Shown here piece by piece: positions 1 through 27,210 of a stretch of DNA of 64,000 nucleotides. This DNA is from Escherichia phage 232Ecol030PP: sequence record PP355090.1, one strand, 5' to 3'. Within the stretch, counting starts at the first letter, position 1, and each line of letters begins with the position of its first letter. Under the pieces are notes generated by a model that saw only the letters and a program-made list of their open reading frames with translations, was not told the DNA's origin and made no database searches. The position numbers and the translations under genes are program-made.

Positions 1-410
1 TAAATATTTTTGCCGTAATACTTATACCAGTGTGGCTTCATTAAAATTTTTTCATCGAGTCGTTGTTGACTCAACTTAATAGCTGATTTGCATGGATTAT
101 AATCATTTTTCCATTCTACTGGAATATCGCTGATGTCAGGAACTTCAGTATCTTTTATACTGAACCCGCGTTTTAAGCATTCCGTTATAATGTCCGATTG
201 ACGCTTTCGCAAAAATTCTAACTTATCGTAAAAGAAAGTAACATGACCAGAACCTAAAATAAATTTAGAAGATATTTTAAAATCTTTAACGCGCTTACCG
301 TTTGCCACATGCTTACGAACTATACCAAAAACACGCGGCAATTCACGGTATTCTGCGATTAAATGTTGATCAGCAAGTTCAGATACTAAAGTCAAATTAA
401 TACGAGTCAT
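1..410 (-). CDS. denV: Endonuclease V (pyrimidine dimer DNA glycosylase), 3'-truncated by window edge
   Basis: Minus-strand ATG at 410-408; own translation [29 protein letters not shown]...[10 protein letters not shown] matches T4 DenV as I recall it; stop codon lies beyond position 1, so absent from ORF track. Confidence 0.85.
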
Positions 411-469
411 TTTATCCCTCCAAGTAACTGTGAATATACTATCACAATTCTAGGAGAAAGTAAACAACT

Positions 470-1000
<531 letters not shown>

Positions 1001-3283: not shown

Positions 3284-3877
3284 TTATTTCAGAGAATTAA
3301 TGTATTCCTGAACATCGGCAGAGGTAGTTTCAACCCCAGAAATATTACCGTTAAAGGTTTCAACTCGAGCAAGGGTATCTTCAATATCAACCTTAGTCAG
3401 TGCTGCAATTTCAACTACATCATCGGCAGTACTAATTCCAAGGGCATTTGCTGCACGAGTTTCACGGATATATTCCAATTTAACCGCAAGTTCTTGACGA
3501 GCATCATCTAACTCAACTACTTTCTTGGCGATTTCAATTCGCATTTCAGCATAACCGTCAGCCTTAGTAGTCAACTGCTCAGCTGTTCGACGATATAGTA
3601 AACCGAGTTTAGCATGCATTGTTACATCTTGGCCTTCGGAAAGAAGTTTACGAATTTCACGCTCTTTTGATTCGGCCTGTCGATTCTTTTCGATAACAAG
3701 TTCACGAATACGTTTTTCTTCGTTAATAGATTTAACAGAAGCAGTTTTTAGATCTTTAATTTTATCAAGTAGTTTTGCTGCTGCAGCAGTATACTGTTCT
3801 TCGACAGATAGATTTTTAGCCATAGCAGAACCAAGTTTAGTGCGAATAAACTCAACAATTTTCTTCAGTGTGTTCAT
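3284..3877 (-). CDS. Hypothetical coiled-coil protein
   Basis: 197 aa, heptad-like charged/Ala-rich sequence; no family confidently recognised. Confidence 0.6.
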
Positions 3878-4166
3878 AGTATTTCCTTAGGTTAATTGAG
3901 ATTTAAAATCCATGAGAGTATTATACTCCGGATAGTTTGTAAACTATTTCAACATCGCCTTTTGCTGCTTTATAACCTTCAGCCCAAGATACAACCGAGT
4001 TTTTATCCGAAGATTCAAATTCTGGCATTGGGCTTTCGCCAATGTTCACGCAGTATGTTTCTTCATTTTCGTCGAACCAAATAATTAAAGTAGTCATTTA
4101 TTTCTCCGTTTTCTGTATTTGTTTTGATAAGTCTATAATAACACCGTCCTTGGCGTTTGTACACAA

Positions 4167-4472: not shown

Positions 4473-4502
4473 ATAGTACCATGGAAGAACAGGGATGTAA
4501 AC
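4473..4502 (-). promoter_or_regulatory. Early-type promoter-like element (GTTTAC -35, 18-nt spacer, TACTAT -10)
   Basis: minus strand reads AAAACTGTTTACATCCCTGTTCTTCCATGGTACTATAC; A-rich upstream tract. Confidence 0.4.
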
Positions 4503-5534: not shown

Positions 5535-5610
5535 TGGTCGAGGCAGTAGGGATCGAACCTACGACCCAGGACTTAGAAGGTCCTTGCTCTTCCTTCTGAG
5601 CTATGCCTCG
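5535..5610 (-). tRNA. tRNA-Arg (anticodon UCU)
   Basis: manual cloverleaf: acceptor CGAGGCA/TGCCTCG, anticodon loop CTTCTAA, T-loop TTCGATC, CCA encoded. Confidence 0.85.
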
Positions 5611-5614
5611 GATT

Positions 5615-5689
5615 TGGCGGACGTGATAGGATTCGAACCTATAACCAATCGCTTAACAGGCGATCGCTCTGCCATTGAGCTACACATCC
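5615..5689 (-). tRNA. tRNA-Asn (anticodon GUU)
   Basis: manual cloverleaf: acceptor GGATGTG/CACGTCC, anticodon stem ATCGC/GCGAT, loop CTGTTAA, T-arm ATAGG-TTCGAAT-CCTAT, CCA encoded. Confidence 0.75.
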
Positions 5690-5693
5690 AAAT

Positions 5694-5780
5694 TGGTGGG
5701 GAGTGATGGAGTCGAACCACCCGAGTCGCAATGACAATGGATTTACAGTCCACACCGCTACCTCTACGGGATAACTCCCC
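5694..5780 (-). tRNA. tRNA-Tyr (anticodon GUA), long variable arm
   Basis: acceptor GGGGAGT/ACTCCCC, anticodon loop CTGTAAA, long variable arm TGTCATTGCGACTCGGG, T-loop TTCGACT; architecture like bacterial tRNA-Tyr. Confidence 0.7.
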
Positions 5781-5789
5781 AAATTAATT

Positions 5790-5864
5790 TGGTGGCCCTG
5801 GGTGGAATTGAACCACCATCTGGCGATTATGAGTCGCTTGCTTGAACCTTCCAGCTACAGGGCC
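5790..5864 (-). tRNA. tRNA with CAU anticodon (Ile by analogy with T4, or Met)
   Basis: acceptor GGCCCTG/CAGGGCC, anticodon loop CTCATAA, T-arm GGTGG-TTCAATT-CCACC. Confidence 0.75.
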
Positions 5865-5865
5865 T

Positions 5866-5941
5866 TGGTGCTGATTGACGGAATCGAACCGCCGACCTTC
5901 TCATTACAAGTGAGTTGCTCTACCTACTGAGCTAAATCAGC
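5866..5941 (-). tRNA. tRNA-Thr (anticodon UGU)
   Basis: acceptor GCTGATT/AATCAGC, anticodon loop CTTGTAA, T-loop TTCGATT. Confidence 0.85.
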
Positions 5942-5946
5942 AAAAC

Positions 5947-6036
5947 TGGCGGAGGCGATAGGATTTGAACCTATGAGTCGCCGGAGCGACTGCCGGTTTT
6001 CAAGACCGGTGCATTAAACCACTCTGCCACGCCTCC
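5947..6036 (-). tRNA. tRNA-Ser (anticodon UGA), long variable arm
   Basis: GGAGGCG...CTTGAAA...long variable arm...ATAGG-TTCAAAT-CCTAT-CGCCTCC-G-CCA. Confidence 0.85.
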
Positions 6037-6039
6037 AGT

Positions 6040-6112
6040 CTCCGTGGCAGGATTTGAACCTACGACATTCTGCTCCCAAAGCAGACGCTCTACCAAACTG
6101 AGCTACACGGAG
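6040..6112 (-). tRNA. tRNA-Pro (anticodon UGG), CCA not encoded
   Basis: acceptor CTCCGTG/CACGGAG, anticodon loop TTTGGGA, T-loop TTCAAAT; 3' end followed by CT then tRNA-Ser. Confidence 0.85.
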
Positions 6113-6122
6113 TAAATTAAAT

Positions 6123-6196
<74 letters not shown>

Positions 6197-6201
6197 AAAT
6201 T

Positions 6202-6288
6202 TGGTGCGAGAAGTGGGACTCGAACCCACAAGGAAATCATTCCGCAGCATTTTAAGTGCTGTGCCTTTACCAATTTGGCCATTCTCGC
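6202..6288 (-). tRNA. tRNA-Leu (anticodon UAA), long variable arm
   Basis: acceptor GCGAGAA/TTCTCGC, anticodon loop CTTAAAA, T-loop TTCGAGT. Confidence 0.85.
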
Positions 6289-6289
6289 G

Positions 6290-6362
6290 CTGGGAATAAA
6301 GGACTCGAACCTTTGCATCCTGGAATCAAAATCCAGTGCCTTACCAACTTGGCTAATTCCCA
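6290..6362 (-). tRNA. tRNA-Gln (anticodon UUG), CCA not encoded
   Basis: acceptor TGGGAAT/ATTCCCA, anticodon loop TTTTGAT, T-loop TTCGAGT. Confidence 0.85.
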
Positions 6363-6459
6363 ATTATTAACAAAGGCTCTTAAGCAAGAACCCTTGATGA
6401 TAGAGGGTATTAATCAGTGCGATATGAGTTAATAATAACAAATAATTCTTAAAGCATAT

Positions 6460-6747
6460 TTACCATTTATAATAATACATATTTACGATGCATTCAAGAC
6501 CCAAAGGATTCTTGAAAATATCATATTCAAGAGGACCTTTTTCTGTTTCAATAAAGAAATCAAAATTTACTGTATTAAATTTACGTTCTTCCTTCACTAA
6601 TTTAACTTGAGAAGATGAACGGTCAATGTAAACCTTTTCAACTTCAAAACATGTTAAAATGCCATAATCATCAATCAAAGCTTTAGCCGCGTCTTGATCA
6701 TATTTATATCCATTTTCAATGGATGATACTTTCGCATAAAGAATCAT
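6460..6747 (-). CDS. Hypothetical protein
   Basis: 95 aa ORF between tRNA cluster and internal-protein-like genes. Confidence 0.55.
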   Translation of the reverse strand: MILYAKVSSIENGYKYDQDAAKALIDDYGILTCFEVEKVYIDRSSSQVKLVKEERKFNTVNFDFFIETEKGPLEYDIFKNPLGLECIVNMYYYKW

Positions 6748-6749
6748 TA

Positions 6750-7148
6750 TCAGCCTTCATCAACAATAGTGTGAGTATTAGCATTTACGATTTGCCACCA
6801 ATCAAAGCGATTAGAATCCATCGGTTTGTTTTCATTTTCTTTGATAATGTCACGGAGTTCATCTTCAGAGAATGCTTTAGCAATTAAATCGGTATACCCA
6901 CCACGGGGATAATAATTATCACCTGCAAACAAAAGGAAATTTACCTTCCCGGAAGCAACATATGCTTCCTTAGGATACTTGTTTCCTGCGTGGTCAACCA
7001 CTTCAATATAACGGTAAGGAATATCGGTTCTTTCAACCCATTGCCATGCCGCCGCAGGGGAATCGAAAGCATCTACACCTAAACGATTATCTTCATCTTT
7101 AGACGGATTATTTTCGTAATCCGCATATACATAATATTCAACGTTCAT
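6750..7148 (-). CDS. Hypothetical protein
   Basis: 132 aa ORF; 3-nt gap to the downstream ORF. Confidence 0.6.
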   Translation of the reverse strand: MNVEYYVYADYENNPSKDEDNRLGVDAFDSPAAAWQWVERTDIPYRYIEVVDHAGNKYPKEAYVASGKVNFLLFAGDNYYPRGGYTDLIAKAFSEDELRDIIKENENKPMDSNRFDWWQIVNANTHTIVDEG

Positions 7149-7333
7149 TATTCACCTTTAGAAATTTTATCCATAACAATAGCAATTAAACCAATTAAAA
7201 ATGCTACTACAAGTGAAAACACATTTTCTGCTGTAGTCAATAATCCACATATAAATCCAACAAACATTGAAAAACTAAAAGCGGAAGCAGAAATTGCAAT
7301 AGCAACATTTCGAATTAATTCACAACGTTTCAT
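7148..7333 (-). CDS. Hypothetical small membrane protein
   Basis: 61 aa, two hydrophobic helices (VAIAISASAFSFSMFVGFICGLL, VVAFLIGLIAIVM); preceded by promoter-like repeat. Confidence 0.5.
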   Translation of the reverse strand: MKRCELIRNVAIAISASAFSFSMFVGFICGLLTTAENVFSLVVAFLIGLIAIVMDKISKGE

Positions 7334-7361
7334 TTTATTCTCCTCAGTAGTAGATAGGGTA

Positions 7362-7391
7362 ATAGTATCACTACCCTATCTAAAAGTAAAC
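7362..7391 (-). promoter_or_regulatory. Early-type promoter-like element embedded in 9-bp inverted repeat (repeat copy 1)
   Basis: minus strand GTTTAC-18nt-TACTAT; inverted repeat GATAGGGTA(7353-7361)/TACCCTATC(7372-7380) brackets the -10-like box. Confidence 0.45.
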
Positions 7392-7625
7392 TTATTTTTT
7401 ACGAAAAATTGATTTATTTTCTGCTGCCCATTTTTCAATAACTGCAGCAGGACCAGTAACAACAATTTTATCACCGTAATCTTCTGCGGCGAGTTGACCG
7501 AAATTATCTAATGCATCACGAAGAACTCCATGAGGCATTTCACCCATTTTATCTTTCTTGCCAGTGTAAATAAACTCAACTTTTACATCAGCAGTTTCAG
7601 CAATAAATTCTTGGTAAGTTTTCAT
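7392..7625 (-). CDS. Internal head protein-like (capsid-targeting sequence MKTYQEFIAE)
   Basis: ORF track gives 7392..7637 (MEIKMKTYQEFIAE...); second Met starts the canonical CTS with an I-A-E cleavage-type site and has a better-spaced RBS, so 7625 is taken as the start. Confidence 0.7.
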   Translation of the reverse strand: MKTYQEFIAETADVKVEFIYTGKKDKMGEMPHGVLRDALDNFGQLAAEDYGDKIVVTGPAAVIEKWAAENKSIFRKK

Positions 7626-7659
7626 TTTGATTTCCATTTGGTTTTGTTTTGATAGGGTA

Positions 7660-7689
7660 ATAGTATCACAACTAAAACCCTATGTAAAC
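7660..7689 (-). promoter_or_regulatory. Early-type promoter-like element (repeat copy 2)
   Basis: minus strand GTTTAC-18nt-TACTAT; conserved core GGGTAATAGTATCAC; inverted-repeat arms ATAGGGT/ACCCTAT. Confidence 0.45.
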
Positions 7690-7701
7690 AACTTTGTGAA
7701 A

Positions 7702-7959
7702 TTATTTTAAATCTTCTAATCGTTTCTTCATCTTAGAACCATTTTTAGCAATTTCTCCTGCATCGGAGCATAATGCTAAAAGTGCTTTAACTTTAGTTTG
7801 GTCTCCTTTAAAAGATGAAGGATCGACCGCAGCAGCAAGTTCTTTAATACGAGAGAAAAGACGCTCAGCTTCAGCTAAAGCCATTCCAAGCTTTACTTCC
7901 ATACCGTGGGAAGATTCAGTGATAGTAGTTTTTGTAGCAAACTCTTTGAAAGTTTTCAT
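7702..7959 (-). CDS. Internal head protein-like (CTS-like N-terminus MKTFKEFATK...ITE)
   Basis: 85 aa; N-terminus follows the M-K-T-(Y/F)-x-E-F pattern; I-T-E site at residues 13-15. Confidence 0.6.
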   Translation of the reverse strand: MKTFKEFATKTTITESSHGMEVKLGMALAEAERLFSRIKELAAAVDPSSFKGDQTKVKALLALCSDAGEIAKNGSKMKKRLEDLK

Positions 7960-7990
7960 TTTTATTTTCCTAATTAATTTTGATGAGGTA

Positions 7991-8020
7991 ATAGTATCAC
8001 TACCTCATCAGTATGTAAAC
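7991..8020 (-). promoter_or_regulatory. Early-type promoter-like element in 10-bp inverted repeat (repeat copy 3)
   Basis: minus strand GTTTAC-18nt-TACTAT; inverted repeat TGATGAGGTA(7981-7990)/TACCTCATCA(8001-8010). Confidence 0.45.
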
Positions 8021-8032
8021 AACTTTGTGAAA

Positions 8033-8717
<685 letters not shown>

Positions 8718-8718
<1 letters not shown>

Positions 8719-9443
8719 TATAGTACCTTTAGTGTATTTTTAATTTTAGAAAAAAGTTCTTCAAGAGAACCATCGTTTGTAATTACTAAATCGCCATCAC
8801 GAATTGGCAATCCAGCTTCTGTAATATGTGTATCATTGGATTTTTGACCAGGACGAACTACATGAATTACTGTAGCACCCATCGCCCTAGCCGCATCCAT
8901 TTCATGATCTTGACGGGTATCAGGAACGATATAATAATCATAACCTGAGTTAAATTTATCAAGATAATCTAAAGCAAATAATTTTACCCAGTACATGCGG
9001 TCGAAGTTATTAACAATCAAATCCGTACCTAGGGCTTGCATCAGACGACGGACTGACCATTGATCTTCAATATTATTTATAACGTCAATAATCTTGTTAA
9101 ATGCTACGGAATTAACTGATTCTTGTCCTTCGTCATCAAAAACAAACACACCTTTAATTGGGCTTTTACCATTAAGATAGCAAAATGCTTGTTCCATAAT
9201 CGTGATTACTTCTAATTTAGTTAGATTTAAATTAGTCTCACGATCATAGTCAATTCCTTCAAACTCTTTACGAGTTAAGCAAGGATAGTCGGTATTTGCT
9301 GCAAATACTCCCCATGCATAAGCCAATGCATCCTTAATAGGACCAGCAAGTTGGTATTTAACTGCAGAATAATTGCTCATGATAAAATCAGCAGTAGTAT
9401 CTTTTCCACTACGCTTTACACCGCTTAAAAAGATTAGTTTCAT
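8718..9443 (-). CDS. 1: Deoxynucleoside monophosphate kinase
   Basis: 241 aa; P-loop GVKRSGKDT; matches T4 gp1 length and order. Confidence 0.92.
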
Positions 9444-9492
9444 ATGTTTCTCCTCAAATTTAGTTAAGATTATAACACATGAAACTGAAGCA

Positions 9493-10023
9493 TTAAACTT
9501 CCGCTATAATTTTTCCATCTTTTTCTACTTGAAAATACGTATAAGGAATCGTTGCTGTACATACTAAAGCCGGGTCTGAATCTTCTGTGTAGCTAAATTC
9601 TACTTCAGATAGGTCAGAAACCCAAGGCTTATAAAAATTTATTGACATCACGATTTCAGTTTTGCTATTATCTAAAATGTAAAGCGTAATGTATTCAGGA
9701 CCTGTTTTTTGGGCAGTATTTTCACCTGTAAGATAGTTGCTAGTTCCTAGCATCCATTCATACATTCCTATCCATGACTTAAGTTCTTCATCAACTATAA
9801 ATCTCACGATGAGTGGATCGTACTCAAATGTAGCACCTGGACGTTGTGCTCGGCCCAGTCCAAACGGCCCAGTCACGGTATCAGTAACAGGTATTCTAAT
9901 TCCTGGAATAGGAACTGACTGAGCATTTAAAGTAAAAGCAGATGTAGTATTACTATGTGGTATTGATACTACAAAGTTAGTTGTATTTGCTTGGTTAAAA
10001 ATTTGTTGCAGTGCTTGCGACAT
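9493..10023 (-). CDS. 3: Tail completion / sheath stabiliser gp3
   Basis: ORF track 9493..10104; start placed at internal Met (MSQALQQIFNQ...) giving 176 aa, the T4 gp3 length. Confidence 0.8.
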   Translation of the reverse strand: MSQALQQIFNQANTTNFVVSIPHSNTTSAFTLNAQSVPIPGIRIPVTDTVTGPFGLGRAQRPGATFEYDPLIVRFIVDEELKSWIGMYEWMLGTSNYLTGENTAQKTGPEYITLYILDNSKTEIVMSINFYKPWVSDLSEVEFSYTEDSDPALVCTATIPYTYFQVEKDGKIIAEV

Positions 10024-24196: not shown

Positions 24197-25743
24197 GTAA
24201 CAATACATATCAGCACGTATCAAATGAATCAAAATATGTTAAATTCGATCCTACTGGATCGAATTTTCCTGGCACTGTTACGACAGTACAGTCTGCATTA
24301 TCAAAAATAAGTAATATCGGCGTAAATGGTATTCCTGATGCAACTATGGAAGTTAAAGGAATAGCAATGATTGCGTCAGAGCAAGAGGTTTTAGATGGAA
24401 CTAATAATTCTAAAATCGTTACACCAGCTACATTAGCAACAAGATTATTGTATCCAAATGCTACTGAAACTAAATATGGTTTAACGCGTTATTCAACAAA
24501 TGAAGAAACATTAAAAGGCTCAGATAATAATTCATCAATAACACCACAAAAACTGAAATACCACACTGACGATGTGTTCAAAAATAGATATTCGTCTGAG
24601 TCATCAAACGGGGTTATTAAAATATCATCTACACCTGCAGCTTTGGCTGGAGTTGATGATACTACTGCGATGACTCCGCTAAAAACCCAAAAACTTGCAA
24701 TAAAATTAATTTCGCAAATAGCTCCTTCAGAAGACACTGCAACAGAATCGGTGAGAGGAGTAGTTCAATTATCTACTGTTGCACAAATTCGTCAAGGAAC
24801 TCTCCGCGAAGGATATGCAATTTCCCCGTATACCTTTATGAATTCTGTTGCAACACATGAATATAAGGGTGTTATACGCCTAGGAACGCAGACTGAAATT
24901 AATAATAATTTGGGTGGTGTTGCAGTAACAGGTGAAACACTAAATGGTCGAGGAGCTACCGGTTCTATGCGTGGAGTAGTTAAATTAACGACGCAAGCCG
25001 GTATTGCCCCTGAAGGTGATAGCTCTGGAGCATTAGCATGGAACGCAGATGTAATTAATACTCGTGGTGGACAAACTATTAATGGTTCTTTAAATTTAGA
25101 CCATCTTACAGCAAATGGAATTTGGTCACGCGGTGGAATGTGGAAAAATGGCGATCAACCTGTTGCCACTGAAAGATATGCGTCCGAACGAGTTCCGGTT
25201 GGAACTATTATGATGTTTGCGGGTGATTCAGCACCTCCAGGTTGGATTATGTGTCATGGTGGAACCGTGTCAGGTGACCAATTTCCTGATTATAGAAACG
25301 TAGTTGGAACAAGATTTGGTGGCGATTGGAATAATCCTGGCGTTCCTGATATGCGGGGTCTTTTCGTCAGAGGAGCCGGCACAGGCGGTCATATTTTAAA
25401 TCAACGTGGACAAGATGGCTATGGAAAGGATAGACTGGGCGTAGGATGTGACGGAATGCATGTTGGTGGTGTTCAGGCACAACAAATGTCATACCATAAA
25501 CATGCTGGTGGTTGGGGTGAATATAACAGAAGTGAAGGCCCATTTGGCGCGTCAGTTTATCAAGGATATCTTGGAACTAGAAAATATTCCGACTGGGATA
25601 ATGCTTCATACTTCACTAATGATGGATTTGAATTAGGTGGACCGAGAGATGCTCATGGTACACTTAATCGTGAAGGATTAATTGGTTATGAAACTAGACC
25701 ATGGAATATATCATTAAACTATATTATTAAAGTTCATTACTAA
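24193..25743 (+). CDS. 12: Short tail fibre protein gp12
   Basis: 516 aa; position after gene 11. Confidence 0.9.
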
Positions 25744-25752
25744 GGATTACAA

Positions 25753-27210
25753 ATGATTGAATTAAAAGAGTTACCTTTTGTTGATAGCGTTCCTGACGAA
25801 GGTCAGGAACGTATTTCATGGATTAAAAATGGTGAAGAAATATTAGGAGCTAGTACTAAGTATGGAAATGATGGATCAATGAATAGACCAATTGTTTCCG
25901 TGTTTAAAAACGTCGAAGTTCTTGATGAAAATGTGGGAATTCTTAAAACTGCCATTGAAACATCACAGAAAGATATTAAAACAATTCAAGGAGTTTTAGA
26001 TGTATCAGGAGATATAGAAGCACTATCGCAGATCAGTGTTAATAAAAATGACATATCGAATTTAAAGACACTTACCAGTGAACACACTGATATATTAACT
26101 GGAACTAATAATACAGTTGACAAAATTATTGCTGATATAGGTCCATTTAATGATGAAGAAAACTCTGTTTATAGAACAATTAGAAATGATTTATTGTGGA
26201 TTAAACAGGAATTAGGACAATATTCTGGCCAAGACATTAACGGTCTTCCTGTTGTTGGTAATGCTAGCACAGGAATGAAACACAGAATAATAACAAATAG
26301 TACATTATTATCTTCACAGGGCATTCGTTTAAGCGAATTAGAAAATAAATTTACTGAATCTGACGTAGGATCATTAACTGTTGAAGTTGGTAAATTACGT
26401 GATGAACTTGGTAATAAACCAGTAGATTTTGGGCCAAATATTTATAATAGATTAAACACTATAGATGATAAACAAACTTTAATAAATTCTGATATAGCAG
26501 AAATTAAATCTTCTATTGGATACCCAGAAAATGTTTCTATAATAACAGAAATTAATAATAACAAAAGTAGCATTGAAGCTATTAATAATGAATTAAATCA
26601 GAGTGAAGGTGTTAAACAGCGCTTAACGGCTATTGAAACTTCTATAGGTTCAGATGATATTCCTTCTAGTATTAAAGGAAAAATTAAAAATCACACAACT
26701 TCTATTGAGTCTTTAAACGGAATTGTTGGTGAAAACACTTCGTCTGGTTTAAGAGCGAATGTTTCGTGGTTAAATCAAATTGTTGGAACTGACTCCAGCG
26801 GAGGACAACCGTCTCCTTCTGGATCTCTATTAAATAAAGTTTCAGTGCTTGAAGGAGAAGTTTCAGTTTTAAACAATAATGTTCAAAATATACAAGTTGA
26901 AATAGGAAATAATAGAACAGGAATTAAAGGTCAAGTTATTGAACTTACTTCACTTATAAATGGAAATAATCCTGACGGATCAACTGTTGAAGAACGAGGA
27001 TTAACTAATTCTGTAAAAACGAATGAAACCAACATTGCGGCAGTCACACATGAAGTAAATACAGCTAAAGACAATATATCCTCTTTACAGAGCAGCGTTC
27101 AAGCTCTACAAGAAGCAGGTTATATTCCTGAAGCTCCAAAAGATGGCCAAGCTTACGTTCGTAAAGACGGCGAATGGGTACTACTTTCTACCTTTTTATC
27201 ACCAGCATAA
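25753..27210 (+). CDS. wac: Fibritin (whisker protein)
   Basis: 485 aa, coiled-coil heptads and C-terminal [27 protein letters not shown] foldon. Confidence 0.95.

Follow-up and report, generated by a model that had tools for sequence, protein, structure and literature searches.

Early-promoter-like repeats with a covarying inverted repeat around the -10 region at the internal protein locus of a T4-like Escherichia phage

Three consecutive minus-strand genes of Escherichia phage 232Ecol030PP (PP355090.1) are each preceded by a copy of a promoter-like repeat whose -10 region lies inside an inverted repeat (positions 7351-8020 of the window, by which we mean the whole 64-kb stretch of DNA analysed). 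What are these elements, and what might the inverted repeat do? A reading of the letters alone (the sequence-only reading) had proposed selection for a hairpin or a dimeric protein-binding site overlapping the promoter. The window belongs to a Tequatrovirus (T4-like phage), and its positions 6400-9500 are 100% identical to Tequatrovirus genomes. The gene order is 57B-[C]-ip5-[B]-ip6-[A]-trna.4, with C, B, and A standing for the repeat copies. The ip5 product matches phrog_3499 ('internal head protein', E 1.2e-49), carries the capsid-targeting leader (MKTFKEF...) and is annotated as ip5 in phage JK08. That of ip6 matches phrog_8111 (E 1.5e-52) from residue 5 on; its likely start is 7625 (MKTYQEFIAE...), and the JK08 annotation places ip6 at 7392-7625 in JK08 coordinates. 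The trna.4-like gene is 100% identical to T4 trna.4 (tblastn). Internal proteins (IPs) are injected anti-restriction factors, and the GmrSD type IV restriction enzyme that is blocked differs between IPI, IPII, and IPIII. Rfam covariance models run over 6300-9600 (E <= 1) matched a tRNA only, and nothing at the repeats.

A search for the core GTGATACTATTACC, as the sequence-only reading had proposed, returned exactly three matches in the 64 kb, all on the minus strand (7987-8000, 7656-7669, and 7358-7371, upstream of ip5, ip6, and the trna.4-like gene, respectively). When up to two mismatches are allowed there are five matches against 0.39 expected, a number that none of 100 shuffles reached. 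The copies sit between the upstream stop codon and the downstream SD/ATG. They had been described as about 45 nt long and are in fact longer, forming a 71-nt direct-repeat family (D1; unit C is 86% and unit A 61% identical to the reference unit B in the 71-nt register) that is followed by a second repeat over the SD and 5' coding ends (D2). The D2 block of ip5 recurs for ip6 at 7590-7633 (77%), so that the recombination homology reaches past the promoter (Table 1).

Table 1. Features of the internal protein locus and of two comparison sites (window coordinates)
Feature	Position	Strand	Remarks
57B	8033..8491	-	100% identical to T4 57B; phrog_755; conserved, bounds the polymorphic IP locus upstream
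ip5, internal head protein cassette	7702..7959	-	85 aa; downstream of copy C
ip6, internal virion protein cassette	7392..7637	-	Downstream of copy B
trna.4-like small membrane-protein gene	7148..7333	-	61 aa; downstream of copy A; phrog_1692
Repeat unit C, 71 nt	7978..8048	-	57B stop codon to ip5; family D1; A/T-rich upstream flank, predicted early promoter, hairpin, leader
Repeat unit B, 71 nt	7647..7717	-	ip5 stop codon to ip6; D1 reference copy
Repeat unit A, 71-nt register	7349..7419	-	ip6 stop codon to trna.4-like gene; family D1
Copy C -35, GTTTAC	8015..8020	-	TTTACA at 8014-8019 in the sigma-70 register
Copy C extended -10, GTGATACTAT	7991..8000	-	TG 7998-7999, TACTAT 7991-7996; equals the hairpin loop
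Copy C 5' arm, TGATGAGGTA	8001..8010	-	Promoter spacer, about -26 to -17; inverted repeat I18
Copy C 3' arm, TACCTCATCA	7981..7990	-	About -6 to +4; inverted repeat I18
Copy B predicted promoter	7660..7689	-	GTTTAC 7684-7689, GTGATACTAT 7660-7669
Copy B dyad, other register	7644..7691	-	Inverted repeat I3; encloses -10, arms also cover -35
Copy A predicted promoter	7362..7391	-	GTTTAC 7386-7391, GTGATACTAT 7362-7371
Copy A hairpin	7351..7382	-	Arms TAGATAGGGTA 7372-7382 / TACCCTATCTA 7351-7361; inverted repeat I15
ip5 SD and 5' coding (capsid-targeting leader) homology block	7924..7967	-	Direct-repeat family D2
Comparator early-promoter-like site, GTTTAC-N18-TACTAT	4473..4502	-	No dyad; best inverted-repeat arm 3 nt
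Early-promoter-like site between gene e and denV	436..465	-	Spacer pairs with denV SD and AUG

The promoter-like character of the copies was borne out, as was the distance of 18 nt from GTTTAC to TACTAT in all three. In the sigma-70 register every copy reads TTTAC(A/T)-17-TGnTACTAT, which is the form of the T4 early promoter, whose consensus comprises an UP region, GTTTAC at -36 to -31, TGn, and the -10 hexamer (Liebig & Ruger 1989; Hinton 2010 review). The A-rich UP-like region at -44 to -40 is ACAAA in copies C and B and AAAAA in copy A. A promoter scan listed two of the copies, B and C, both as TTTACA-17-TACTAT with a TG ahead of the -10 hexamer; copy A (-35 TTTACT) is absent from that list, and its GTGATACTAT and the spacing of this element from GTTTAC are as in B and C. 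We conclude that the three copies are very probably T4-type early promoters, or PeSL-like elements of the IP locus, which by consensus and literature would be active in 232Ecol030PP. From the -10 spacing, transcription from copy C is predicted to start at the A at 7984, inside the 3' arm. The T4 records NC_000866 and AF158101 carry no promoter annotation, and a literature search for T4 TSS or Term-seq maps and for reports of dyads at the early promoters of T4 returned nothing usable.

Copy C has the same sequence as the T4 element in front of ipI (P-ipI), and the T4 trna.4 element is a chimera of the left part of copy B and the right part of copy A, giving the T4 order 57B-[C]-ipI-[B/A]-trna.4. 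Comparison with five relatives (T4, L032, L031, L043, and L046) shows differences of entire IP cassettes, whose joints fall within the repeat elements: L032 has the order 57B-[B]-ip6-[A]-trna.4, L031 has a different IP gene at the locus, and L046 carries B-left/C-right and A-left/C-right chimeras. The e-denV junction of 232Ecol030PP is without the ipIII and ipII cassettes. At the IP locus, the three tandem copies are clustered in a hyperplastic region, where they flank ip5, ip6, and trna.4. The arrangement of promoter and stem-loop as a cassette at the T-even IP locus is thus real and already known, since Repoila 1994 (EMBO J 13:4181, as related by Arbiol 2010), Arbiol 2010 and Comeau 2014 describe such cassettes. 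The first, in that account, reported PeSL-like elements at T-even IP loci consisting of T4 early promoters and weaker AT-rich stem-loops, and the latter two described the promoter/stem-loop cassettes (PeSLs) of RB49/phi1, PST/T4, and nt-1/KVP40. The identity with P-ipI, the membership of a described class and the role of the repeats as joints of cassette exchange were absent from the sequence-only reading.

The inverted repeat itself is perfect in two copies: the arms of copy C (10 bp) and copy A (11 bp) are 100% complementary around a 10-nt loop, and both are among only six distinct perfect hairpin repeats in the 64 kb (arm >=10 nt, loop <=20 nt). The arms GATAGGGTA/TACCCTATC named by the sequence-only reading are exact in copy A, and copy B fits only in part and in a different register (inner arms ATAGGGT/ACCCTAT at 7677-7683 and 7652-7658 with an 18-nt loop; outer 21-nt arms 81% complementary). 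The compensatory change that had been pointed out holds for all three arm differences between copies A and C, each of which is compensated on the opposite arm (G:C to A:T, A:T to G:C, and A:T to T:A). Folding, which had been suggested as a check, gave stable sense RNA hairpins for C, B, and A of -17.4, -18.1, and -19.8 kcal/mol (z -3.7, -4.0, and -3.9), against -13.7, -17.9, and -14.9 kcal/mol for the antisense strand, a gap that comes partly from G·U pairs made by the conserved TGn/-10 letters. As DNA, either strand folds with -8 to -10 kcal/mol (z about -3 to -4.5). The dyad is not a general property of early-promoter-like sites, as it is found in three of the seven in the window and is missing from the other four, among them the site at 4473-4502, correctly described before as a fourth element without the palindrome. 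In T4 (1-77.5 kb), six of 24 such sites have a helix score >=7 (ipI, trna.4, ipII, regB, mobD.2, and dmd) and 18 have no dyad.

The comparison was extended to about 180 related promoters on T4-like contigs, in which at least 12 distinct arm sequences are still complementary as pairs, with loops of 10 to 21 nt. Arms of at least 7 occur in 15 elements against 2.95 +/- 1.46 after partner-swapping, and in 12 against 1.8 +/- 1.3 in an independent promoter set with other -10 cores. The covariation score is 0.240 compared with 0.178 +/- 0.014 in shuffles (equalled by none of 500) and 0.136-0.171 in slid controls. Being well above the swap, shuffle, and slide controls, the covariation of the arms is real, and it supports the proposed selection for a hairpin more strongly than the letters of the window alone could. 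Natural chimeras with broken dyads (L046 and L078) show at the same time that the hairpin is not essential. A metagenome scan yielded few further T4-like promoters, most matches being chance matches in unrelated contigs. A dyad specific to IP genes was considered and rejected: other T4-like phages have dyad promoters in front of small, unrelated early genes, and T4 has them in front of regB, dmd, and mobD.2.

Mismatches in the strong helices number six G·T, no A·C, and one G·A, and naturally occurring versions of copies C and A that differ by one base (in L031 and L043) yield G·T. The cases are few and some are related, and in a looser census (fixed 9-11-nt windows, <=2 mismatches) the bias is gone, with seven G·T against five A·C, so the strand bias toward the sense-strand RNA is suggestive only. 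Together with the freely varying arms, this G·T bias speaks more for a hairpin in the sense-strand RNA than for a protein operator. Among the dyad promoters, 28 of 29 have a co-oriented upstream ORF ending adjacent, and the distance from its stop codon to the -35 has a median of 2 nt compared with 9 nt (p = 0.0005, a value that ignores kinship and includes some chance promoter matches). It is apparently this tiny intergenic space that squeezes the hairpin onto the promoter.

Taken together, we find it rather probable that the elements combine PeSL-like early promoters, a homology linker and an intercistronic hairpin at the RNA level. Host sigma-70 RNA polymerase would read the three promoters immediately after infection. 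The repeat of ~70 bp, with the SD and the leader coding sequence, would serve as a homology linker that parts the IP cassettes from 57B to trna.4, and recombination inside it would add, delete or swap cassettes that each keep their own promoter and ribosome site. The 5' arm falls in the promoter spacer and the 3' arm spans the predicted transcription start, so the promoter's own transcript would be without the hairpin, and upstream read-through RNA would form a hairpin of 13-14 bp capped by a tetraloop (AUAC). We tentatively place the role of the hairpin at this RNA level, as an intercistronic element that may protect the 3' end of the upstream message or set a processing boundary for it, or may attenuate weakly or insulate, and that would be neither a canonical terminator nor an operator nor a switch masking the ribosome-binding site (RBS). 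That the repeats give every ip gene its own strong immediate-early promoter, and that through their homology T-even phages can exchange ip cassettes and thereby shift host range, has already been proposed in the literature. The in silico additions made here (covariation, mismatches that are G·T and not A·C, no U-tract, and unchanged accessibility of ip5 and ip6) narrow the options for the hairpin to the RNA level, and its function is easily testable in T4, which has the identical sequence upstream of ipI.

It is unlikely that the hairpins are true terminators isolating the cassettes, as in the PeSL model. Their sense RNA folds are stable (-17 to -20 kcal/mol), and in RB49 the PeSL211/210 stem-loop placed between a promoter and lacZ reduced expression to a degree similar to the rrnB T1 terminator (Arbiol 2010). 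However, a terminator scan called none of the three hairpins, whose 3' tails are A-rich (AAAATTAATT, CTACTGAGG, and CAAAACAAAA), and no T-run or U-tract follows any of them or of their relatives with 10-nt loops, so they are not canonical terminators; the T-even IP stem-loops are moreover the weaker, AT-rich ones according to Arbiol 2010. The nearest upstream minus-strand late-promoter motif (TATAAATA) lies at 9074-9081, from which late synthesis of the packaged IPs would presumably need read-through of the elements.

We likewise give little credence to promoter-wrapped dyads as a general device, so far unformalised, that separates own from read-through RNA at every cassette boundary. Own RNA would then be structure-free, and the hairpin of the read-through RNA would mask the ribosome site at promoters of the denV and regB type and would mark a processing or stability boundary at ip5, ip6, and trna.4. 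The site upstream of denV folds as RNA with -24.1 kcal/mol (z -4.5), and the predicted unpaired probability of the denV translation-initiation region is 0.19 in the read-through RNA compared with 0.53 in the promoter's own transcript. The same masking geometry was seen in silico at P-denV and P-regB of T4. If such a device existed, the hairpins of the IP cassettes would act as specific regulators, open to selection, of how anti-restriction proteins are expressed early versus late or from own versus read-through RNA, and would be more than terminators or passive recombination homology.

Two further explanations appear quite improbable. In the first, the dyad acts on the DNA, as a hairpin, a cruciform or the target of a structure-specific nuclease such as endonuclease VII that starts cassette exchange, or as a tuner of promoter opening. 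Crossover joints do lie inside the elements, both DNA strands fold, and PeSL mini-circles were reported for RB49/phi1 (Arbiol 2010). Yet plain homology of 14-70 nt suffices for the joints, cruciform extrusion is costly with a 10-nt loop, and infecting T4 DNA is linear; the variable register relative to the -10 speaks against a precise role in promoter opening, and a duplex-level structure would not favour G·T over A·C, whereas the strong helices have six against none. The second takes the perfect palindromes for a functionless by-product of mutation, made when template switching corrects quasi-palindromes or when the repeats undergo gene conversion with one another. Correction of quasi-palindromes is a classic route of mutation in T4, perfect arms (10/10, 11/11, and 13/13) in fast-evolving AT-rich spacers would suit it, and broken chimeras persist. 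Against a by-product stand the recurrence of dyads at non-homologous promoters with unrelated arms and in several registers across diverse T4-like phages, and the excess over the controls and the G·T-only mismatches, which would be unexpected if the dyads were neutral.

Masking of the RBS in the manner of T4 e and I-TevI, so that only the promoter's own transcript is translated, is a very improbable role for these hairpins, even though the geometry is the same and masking is predicted at the denV and regB promoters. The 3' arms end about 10-20 nt upstream of the SD, and the predicted unpaired probability of the translation-initiation region (read-through versus own transcript) is 0.79/0.81 for ip5 and 0.54/0.55 for ip6, by which masking was rejected for these two genes, and mildly lower in the read-through RNA for trna.4 (0.63 versus 0.77). 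That a dimeric DNA-binding protein uses the inverted repeat as its operator, to repress or activate the early promoter, is scarcely credible and close to refuted: the dyad symmetry is centred on the -10, and how T4 early promoters are shut off is said to be understood only in part, but the arm sequences are unrelated, with no conserved half-site and variable spacing, strong-helix mismatches are G·T, and most early-promoter-like sites of the window and of T4 have no dyad.

The elements resemble several known systems. Compared with T4 early promoters, they have all consensus blocks at the right spacing, and the dyad falls outside the promoter definition and accompanies a minority of sites. They share with the leaders of T4 e and I-TevI (and soc and 49) a promoter inside an RNA structure and an own transcript without the 5' arm; those leaders have a late promoter and a 3' arm that is the RBS, unlike the early promoter and the 3' arm short of the SD found here. 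The denV site (436-465) fits the e/I-TevI logic. With rho-independent terminators they have in common a stable intergenic hairpin on the sense strand and differ in the missing U-tract.

The likeness to PeSLs is closer. Here too an AT-rich region, -35, -10, stem-loop, and SD form one intergenic cassette, and the cassettes cluster in hyperplastic regions beside indels and replacements. PeSL stems accept G-T pairs, and the stem-loop lies mostly between -35 and -10 or overlaps the -10 (Arbiol 2010). Unlike the RB49 PeSLs, the copies follow the GTTTAC consensus and not TTGACA and have AT-rich stems in place of polyG/polyC; unlike the PST PeSLs as drawn, with stem-loops just upstream of the promoter, the stem-loops enclose the -10; and there is no U-tract, which makes terminator activity doubtful. 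Arbiol 2010 regards the T-even IP elements as analogues, not homologues, of the RB49 PeSLs. It is with these T-even IP-locus repeats that the copies agree best: they occupy the same locus (57B to trna.4, with ipI, ip5, ip6, and others), include the same T4 P-ipI sequence and, as in the published account insofar as Arbiol 2010 relates it, flank IP genes that share a capsid-targeting leader and are proposed to drive IP shuffling. Measured against that account there is no substantive difference, and 232Ecol030PP appears as a further T-even genome, in the ip5/ip6 configuration.

On sequence evidence, the window belongs to a T4-like phage (Tequatrovirus). A sequence search with positions 6400-9500 matched 902 phage records, including Yersinia phage PYps35T and Escherichia phage a15 at 100% identity. 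The elements are located in the internal protein (IP, injected anti-restriction factor) locus, with the minus-strand order 57B, ip5, ip6, a trna.4-like gene and the tRNA cluster. There are exactly three instances of the core GTGATACTATTACC in the 64 kb, one upstream of each small gene (copy C of ip5, copy B of ip6, copy A of the trna.4-like gene), which bears out what a sequence-only reading had observed. Every copy contains GTTTAC-N18-TACTAT (sigma-70 register TTTACA-17-TACTAT, with the hexamer preceded by TG). The inverted-repeat arms described earlier are perfect in copies A and C, while copy B forms its dyad in a different register. Perfect hairpin repeats whose arms reach at least 10 nt number only six in the 64 kb, copies A and C being two of them; the arms of these copies differ at three positions, every one compensated, which agrees with the compensatory change noted earlier. 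The earlier length of ~45 nt was too short: the repeat extends over ~71 nt, and homology runs on into the Shine-Dalgarno (SD) and capsid-targeting-leader codons (repeat family D2). We agree that a fourth GTTTAC-N18-TACTAT site has no dyad.

Features of the window
Feature	Position	Strand	Description
57B	8033-8491	-	
ip5	7702-7959	-	
ip6	7392-7625/7637	-	
trna.4-like gene	7148-7333	-	
Copy A dyad	7351-7382	-	11-bp perfect arms, 10-nt loop GTGATACTAT
Copy B dyad			7-bp arms, 18-nt loop, within 21-nt arms 81% complementary; -35 also covered
Copy C dyad	7981-8010	-	10-bp perfect arms, 10-nt loop GTGATACTAT
Fourth site	4473-4502		
Nearest upstream late-promoter motif	9074-9081		
SD region of trna.4-like gene	7334-7344	-	GGAGAATAAAA
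tRNA cluster	5535-6362	-	10 tRNAs: Arg, Asn, Tyr, Met, Thr, Ser, Pro, Gly, Leu, Gln
denV region	400-520	-	denV directly after gene e
Promoter-like site before denV	436-465	-	-35/spacer CUUUCUCC...
Further hairpin	24241-24266		AAATTCGATCC-tact-GGATCGAATTT
Further hairpin	25788-25811		CGTTCCTGAC-gaag-GTCAGGAACG

Upstream of the trna.4-like gene, the SD region fits the published consensus of strong RegB endoribonuclease sites (GGAGRAYARAA); GGAG is absent from the ip5 and ip6 leaders. At the tRNA locus T4 encodes 8 tRNAs and the homing endonuclease gene segB, whereas the window has Asn, Tyr and Met tRNAs and no segB. The two further perfect short-loop hairpins are candidate terminators or regulatory hairpins of the late-gene region.

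Early-promoter-like elements were gathered from T4-like contigs, in which the same core is flanked by many arm pairs, such as GTTGATAGGGT/ACCCTATCAAC, TGGTAGAAGAC/GTCTTCTACCA, TGGTAGGAGC/GCTCCTACCA, GTGTAGGAGC/GCTCCTACAC, CCGGAAGT/ACTTCCGG and AGTTGACAAGATT/AATCTTGTCAACT. Relatives keep the arms as pairs, the outcome on which the claim had been staked beforehand: arms of at least 7 are present in 15 of the 91 distinct elements, against 2.95 ± 1.46 (maximum 7) with swapped 3' halves and 1.23 ± 1.11 with shuffled spacers. In an independent set, made up of 102 promoters whose -10 cores differ from this one, there were 12 versus 1.8 ± 1.3. Among 86 non-redundant promoters, for which the dyad was not a selection criterion, covariation in the loop-10 register (10 nt between the arms) was 0.240, compared with 0.178 ± 0.014 in shuffles (0 of 500 reached 0.240) and 0.136-0.171 in slid registers; doubly changed cells numbered 168 versus 117.7 ± 10.3. 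With covariation above swap, shuffle and slide controls, the hairpin reading proved right. In T4 (1-77.5 kb), the helix score around the -10 is at least 7 at 6/24 early-promoter-like sites (ipI, trna.4, ipII, regB, mobD.2 and dmd). The dyad is therefore a recurrent covarying trait in a minority of T4-type early promoters; restriction to IP genes is ruled out, since promoters of other genes also carry dyads. The T4 mobD.2 (57990-57941) and dmd (20612-20563) sites have loop-10 dyads around the -10, with 13-bp perfect arms (AGTTGACAAGATT/AATCTTGTCAACT) and 9-bp arms (GACAAGACT/AGTCTTGTC), respectively, and a relative's locus (L110) has a mobD.2-type arm in which an A-to-G change gives a G·T pair.

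A co-oriented ORF ends just upstream of 28 of the 29 dyad promoters, and the median distance from stop to -35 is 2 nt with a dyad versus 9 nt without (p = 0.0005), in keeping with an intercistronic hairpin that overlies the promoter where room is limited. At the usual 7-nt spacing, transcription would start within the 3' arm, and the hairpin would thus be confined to RNA reading through from upstream. Judging by where the closest late-promoter motif lies upstream, read-through is probably needed for late synthesis of the IPs. Our best guess, held tentatively, is that the hairpin would serve read-through transcripts as a boundary or stability element at the RNA level. That the hairpins are true terminators is doubtful: they lack a 3' T-run and a terminator scan calls none, so they are not canonical ones.

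Among the mismatches in the strong helices there are 6 G·T, 1 G·A and no A·C (internal loop of copy B excluded), and the single-base changes that occur naturally in copies C and A of relatives (loci L031 and L043) yield G·T both times. This pattern suggests a single-stranded structure of the sense strand, most simply RNA, graded as suggestive because the bias fades under a looser helix definition (7 G·T versus 5 A·C). Folding of the sense RNA gives -17.4, -18.1 and -19.8 kcal/mol for the three copies (z between about -3.7 and -4.0), and folding of the antisense gives -13.7, -17.9 and -14.9 kcal/mol, a gap owed in part to G·U pairs from the conserved TGn and -10 letters. No Rfam family matches the elements. 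A structure acting in DNA, for recombination or for the promoter, seems improbable, and a neutral mutational by-product equally so. Masking of ribosome binding sites is very improbable, as those of ip5 and ip6 are not masked (unpaired probability 0.79/0.81 and 0.54/0.55) and that of trna.4 is mildly affected (0.63/0.77). The dimeric protein-binding site also proposed earlier can be dismissed as a sequence-specific operator on account of the diverse arms and variable register.

In the denV region, T4 carries ipIII and ipII cassettes between gene e and denV. The promoter-like site there resembles T4 P-ipIII on its left side and is joined to the denV SD; its -35/spacer pairs with the denV SD and AUG in read-through RNA (-24.1 kcal/mol, z -4.5), with an unpaired probability of 0.19, versus 0.53 in the promoter's own transcript. 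The logic is that of the T4 e and I-TevI hairpins, but the promoter enclosed here is early. In T4 (NC_000866, loci L237/L002, 65.3-65.8 kb and 62.7-62.8 kb), the downstream gene's SD is likewise complementary to the spacer in P-denV (TCTCCTGTAG/CTACAGGAGA, -18.0 kcal/mol) and P-regB (TCCTCTTGACT/AGTTAAGAGGA, -18.2 kcal/mol), and CCTC- or TCCT-like spacers directly follow GTTTAC in several other T4-like early promoters.

The loci of relatives differ by entire cassettes, with joints within the elements: 57B-[C]-ip5-[B]-ip6-[A]-trna.4 in the window, 57B-[C]-ipI-[B/A]-trna.4 in T4, 57B-[B]-ip6-[A]-trna.4 in locus L032, and a different IP of 102 aa in L031. Locus L046 contains B-left/C-right and A-left/C-right chimeras with broken dyads; there (3440-3934) and in L078, a copy-B or copy-A left arm sits on a copy-C right arm and the downstream IP genes are intact. 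As read from sequence, these chimeras show crossovers within the 14-nt core; they also show that a broken hairpin is tolerated and that the hairpin is dispensable, in the short term at least. The cassette comparisons support the published linker model.

The sequence upstream of T4 ipI is the same as copy C, and the element upstream of T4 trna.4 matches copy B in its left part and copy A in its right. The elements are promoter-like, as proposed, with blocks that match the published T4 early promoters (A-rich -40 to -44, GTTTAC at -36 to -31, TGn and -10). A 1994 abstract from Repoila reportedly describes a ~70-bp flanking sequence with a T4 early promoter and an overlapping inverted repeat. Promoter-early stem-loops (PeSLs) were defined in RB49/phi1, with the stem-loop mostly between -35 and -10 or overlapping the -10 (Arbiol et al. 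2010); that paper credits Repoila et al. 1994 with PeSL-like elements at both T-even IP loci, in which weaker, AT-rich stem-loops accompany T4 early promoters. The PST/T4 pair was added to the phages with PeSLs by Comeau et al. 2014 (motif TTTACW-N17-TAYWAT), who connected them with IP differences; PST is a T-even phage of Yersinia, as are the best matches to the window. The finding is real, but what it describes are P-ipI-type elements of T4 itself. Publications of 1994 and 2010 had already covered this class, and we therefore score the finding as already known.
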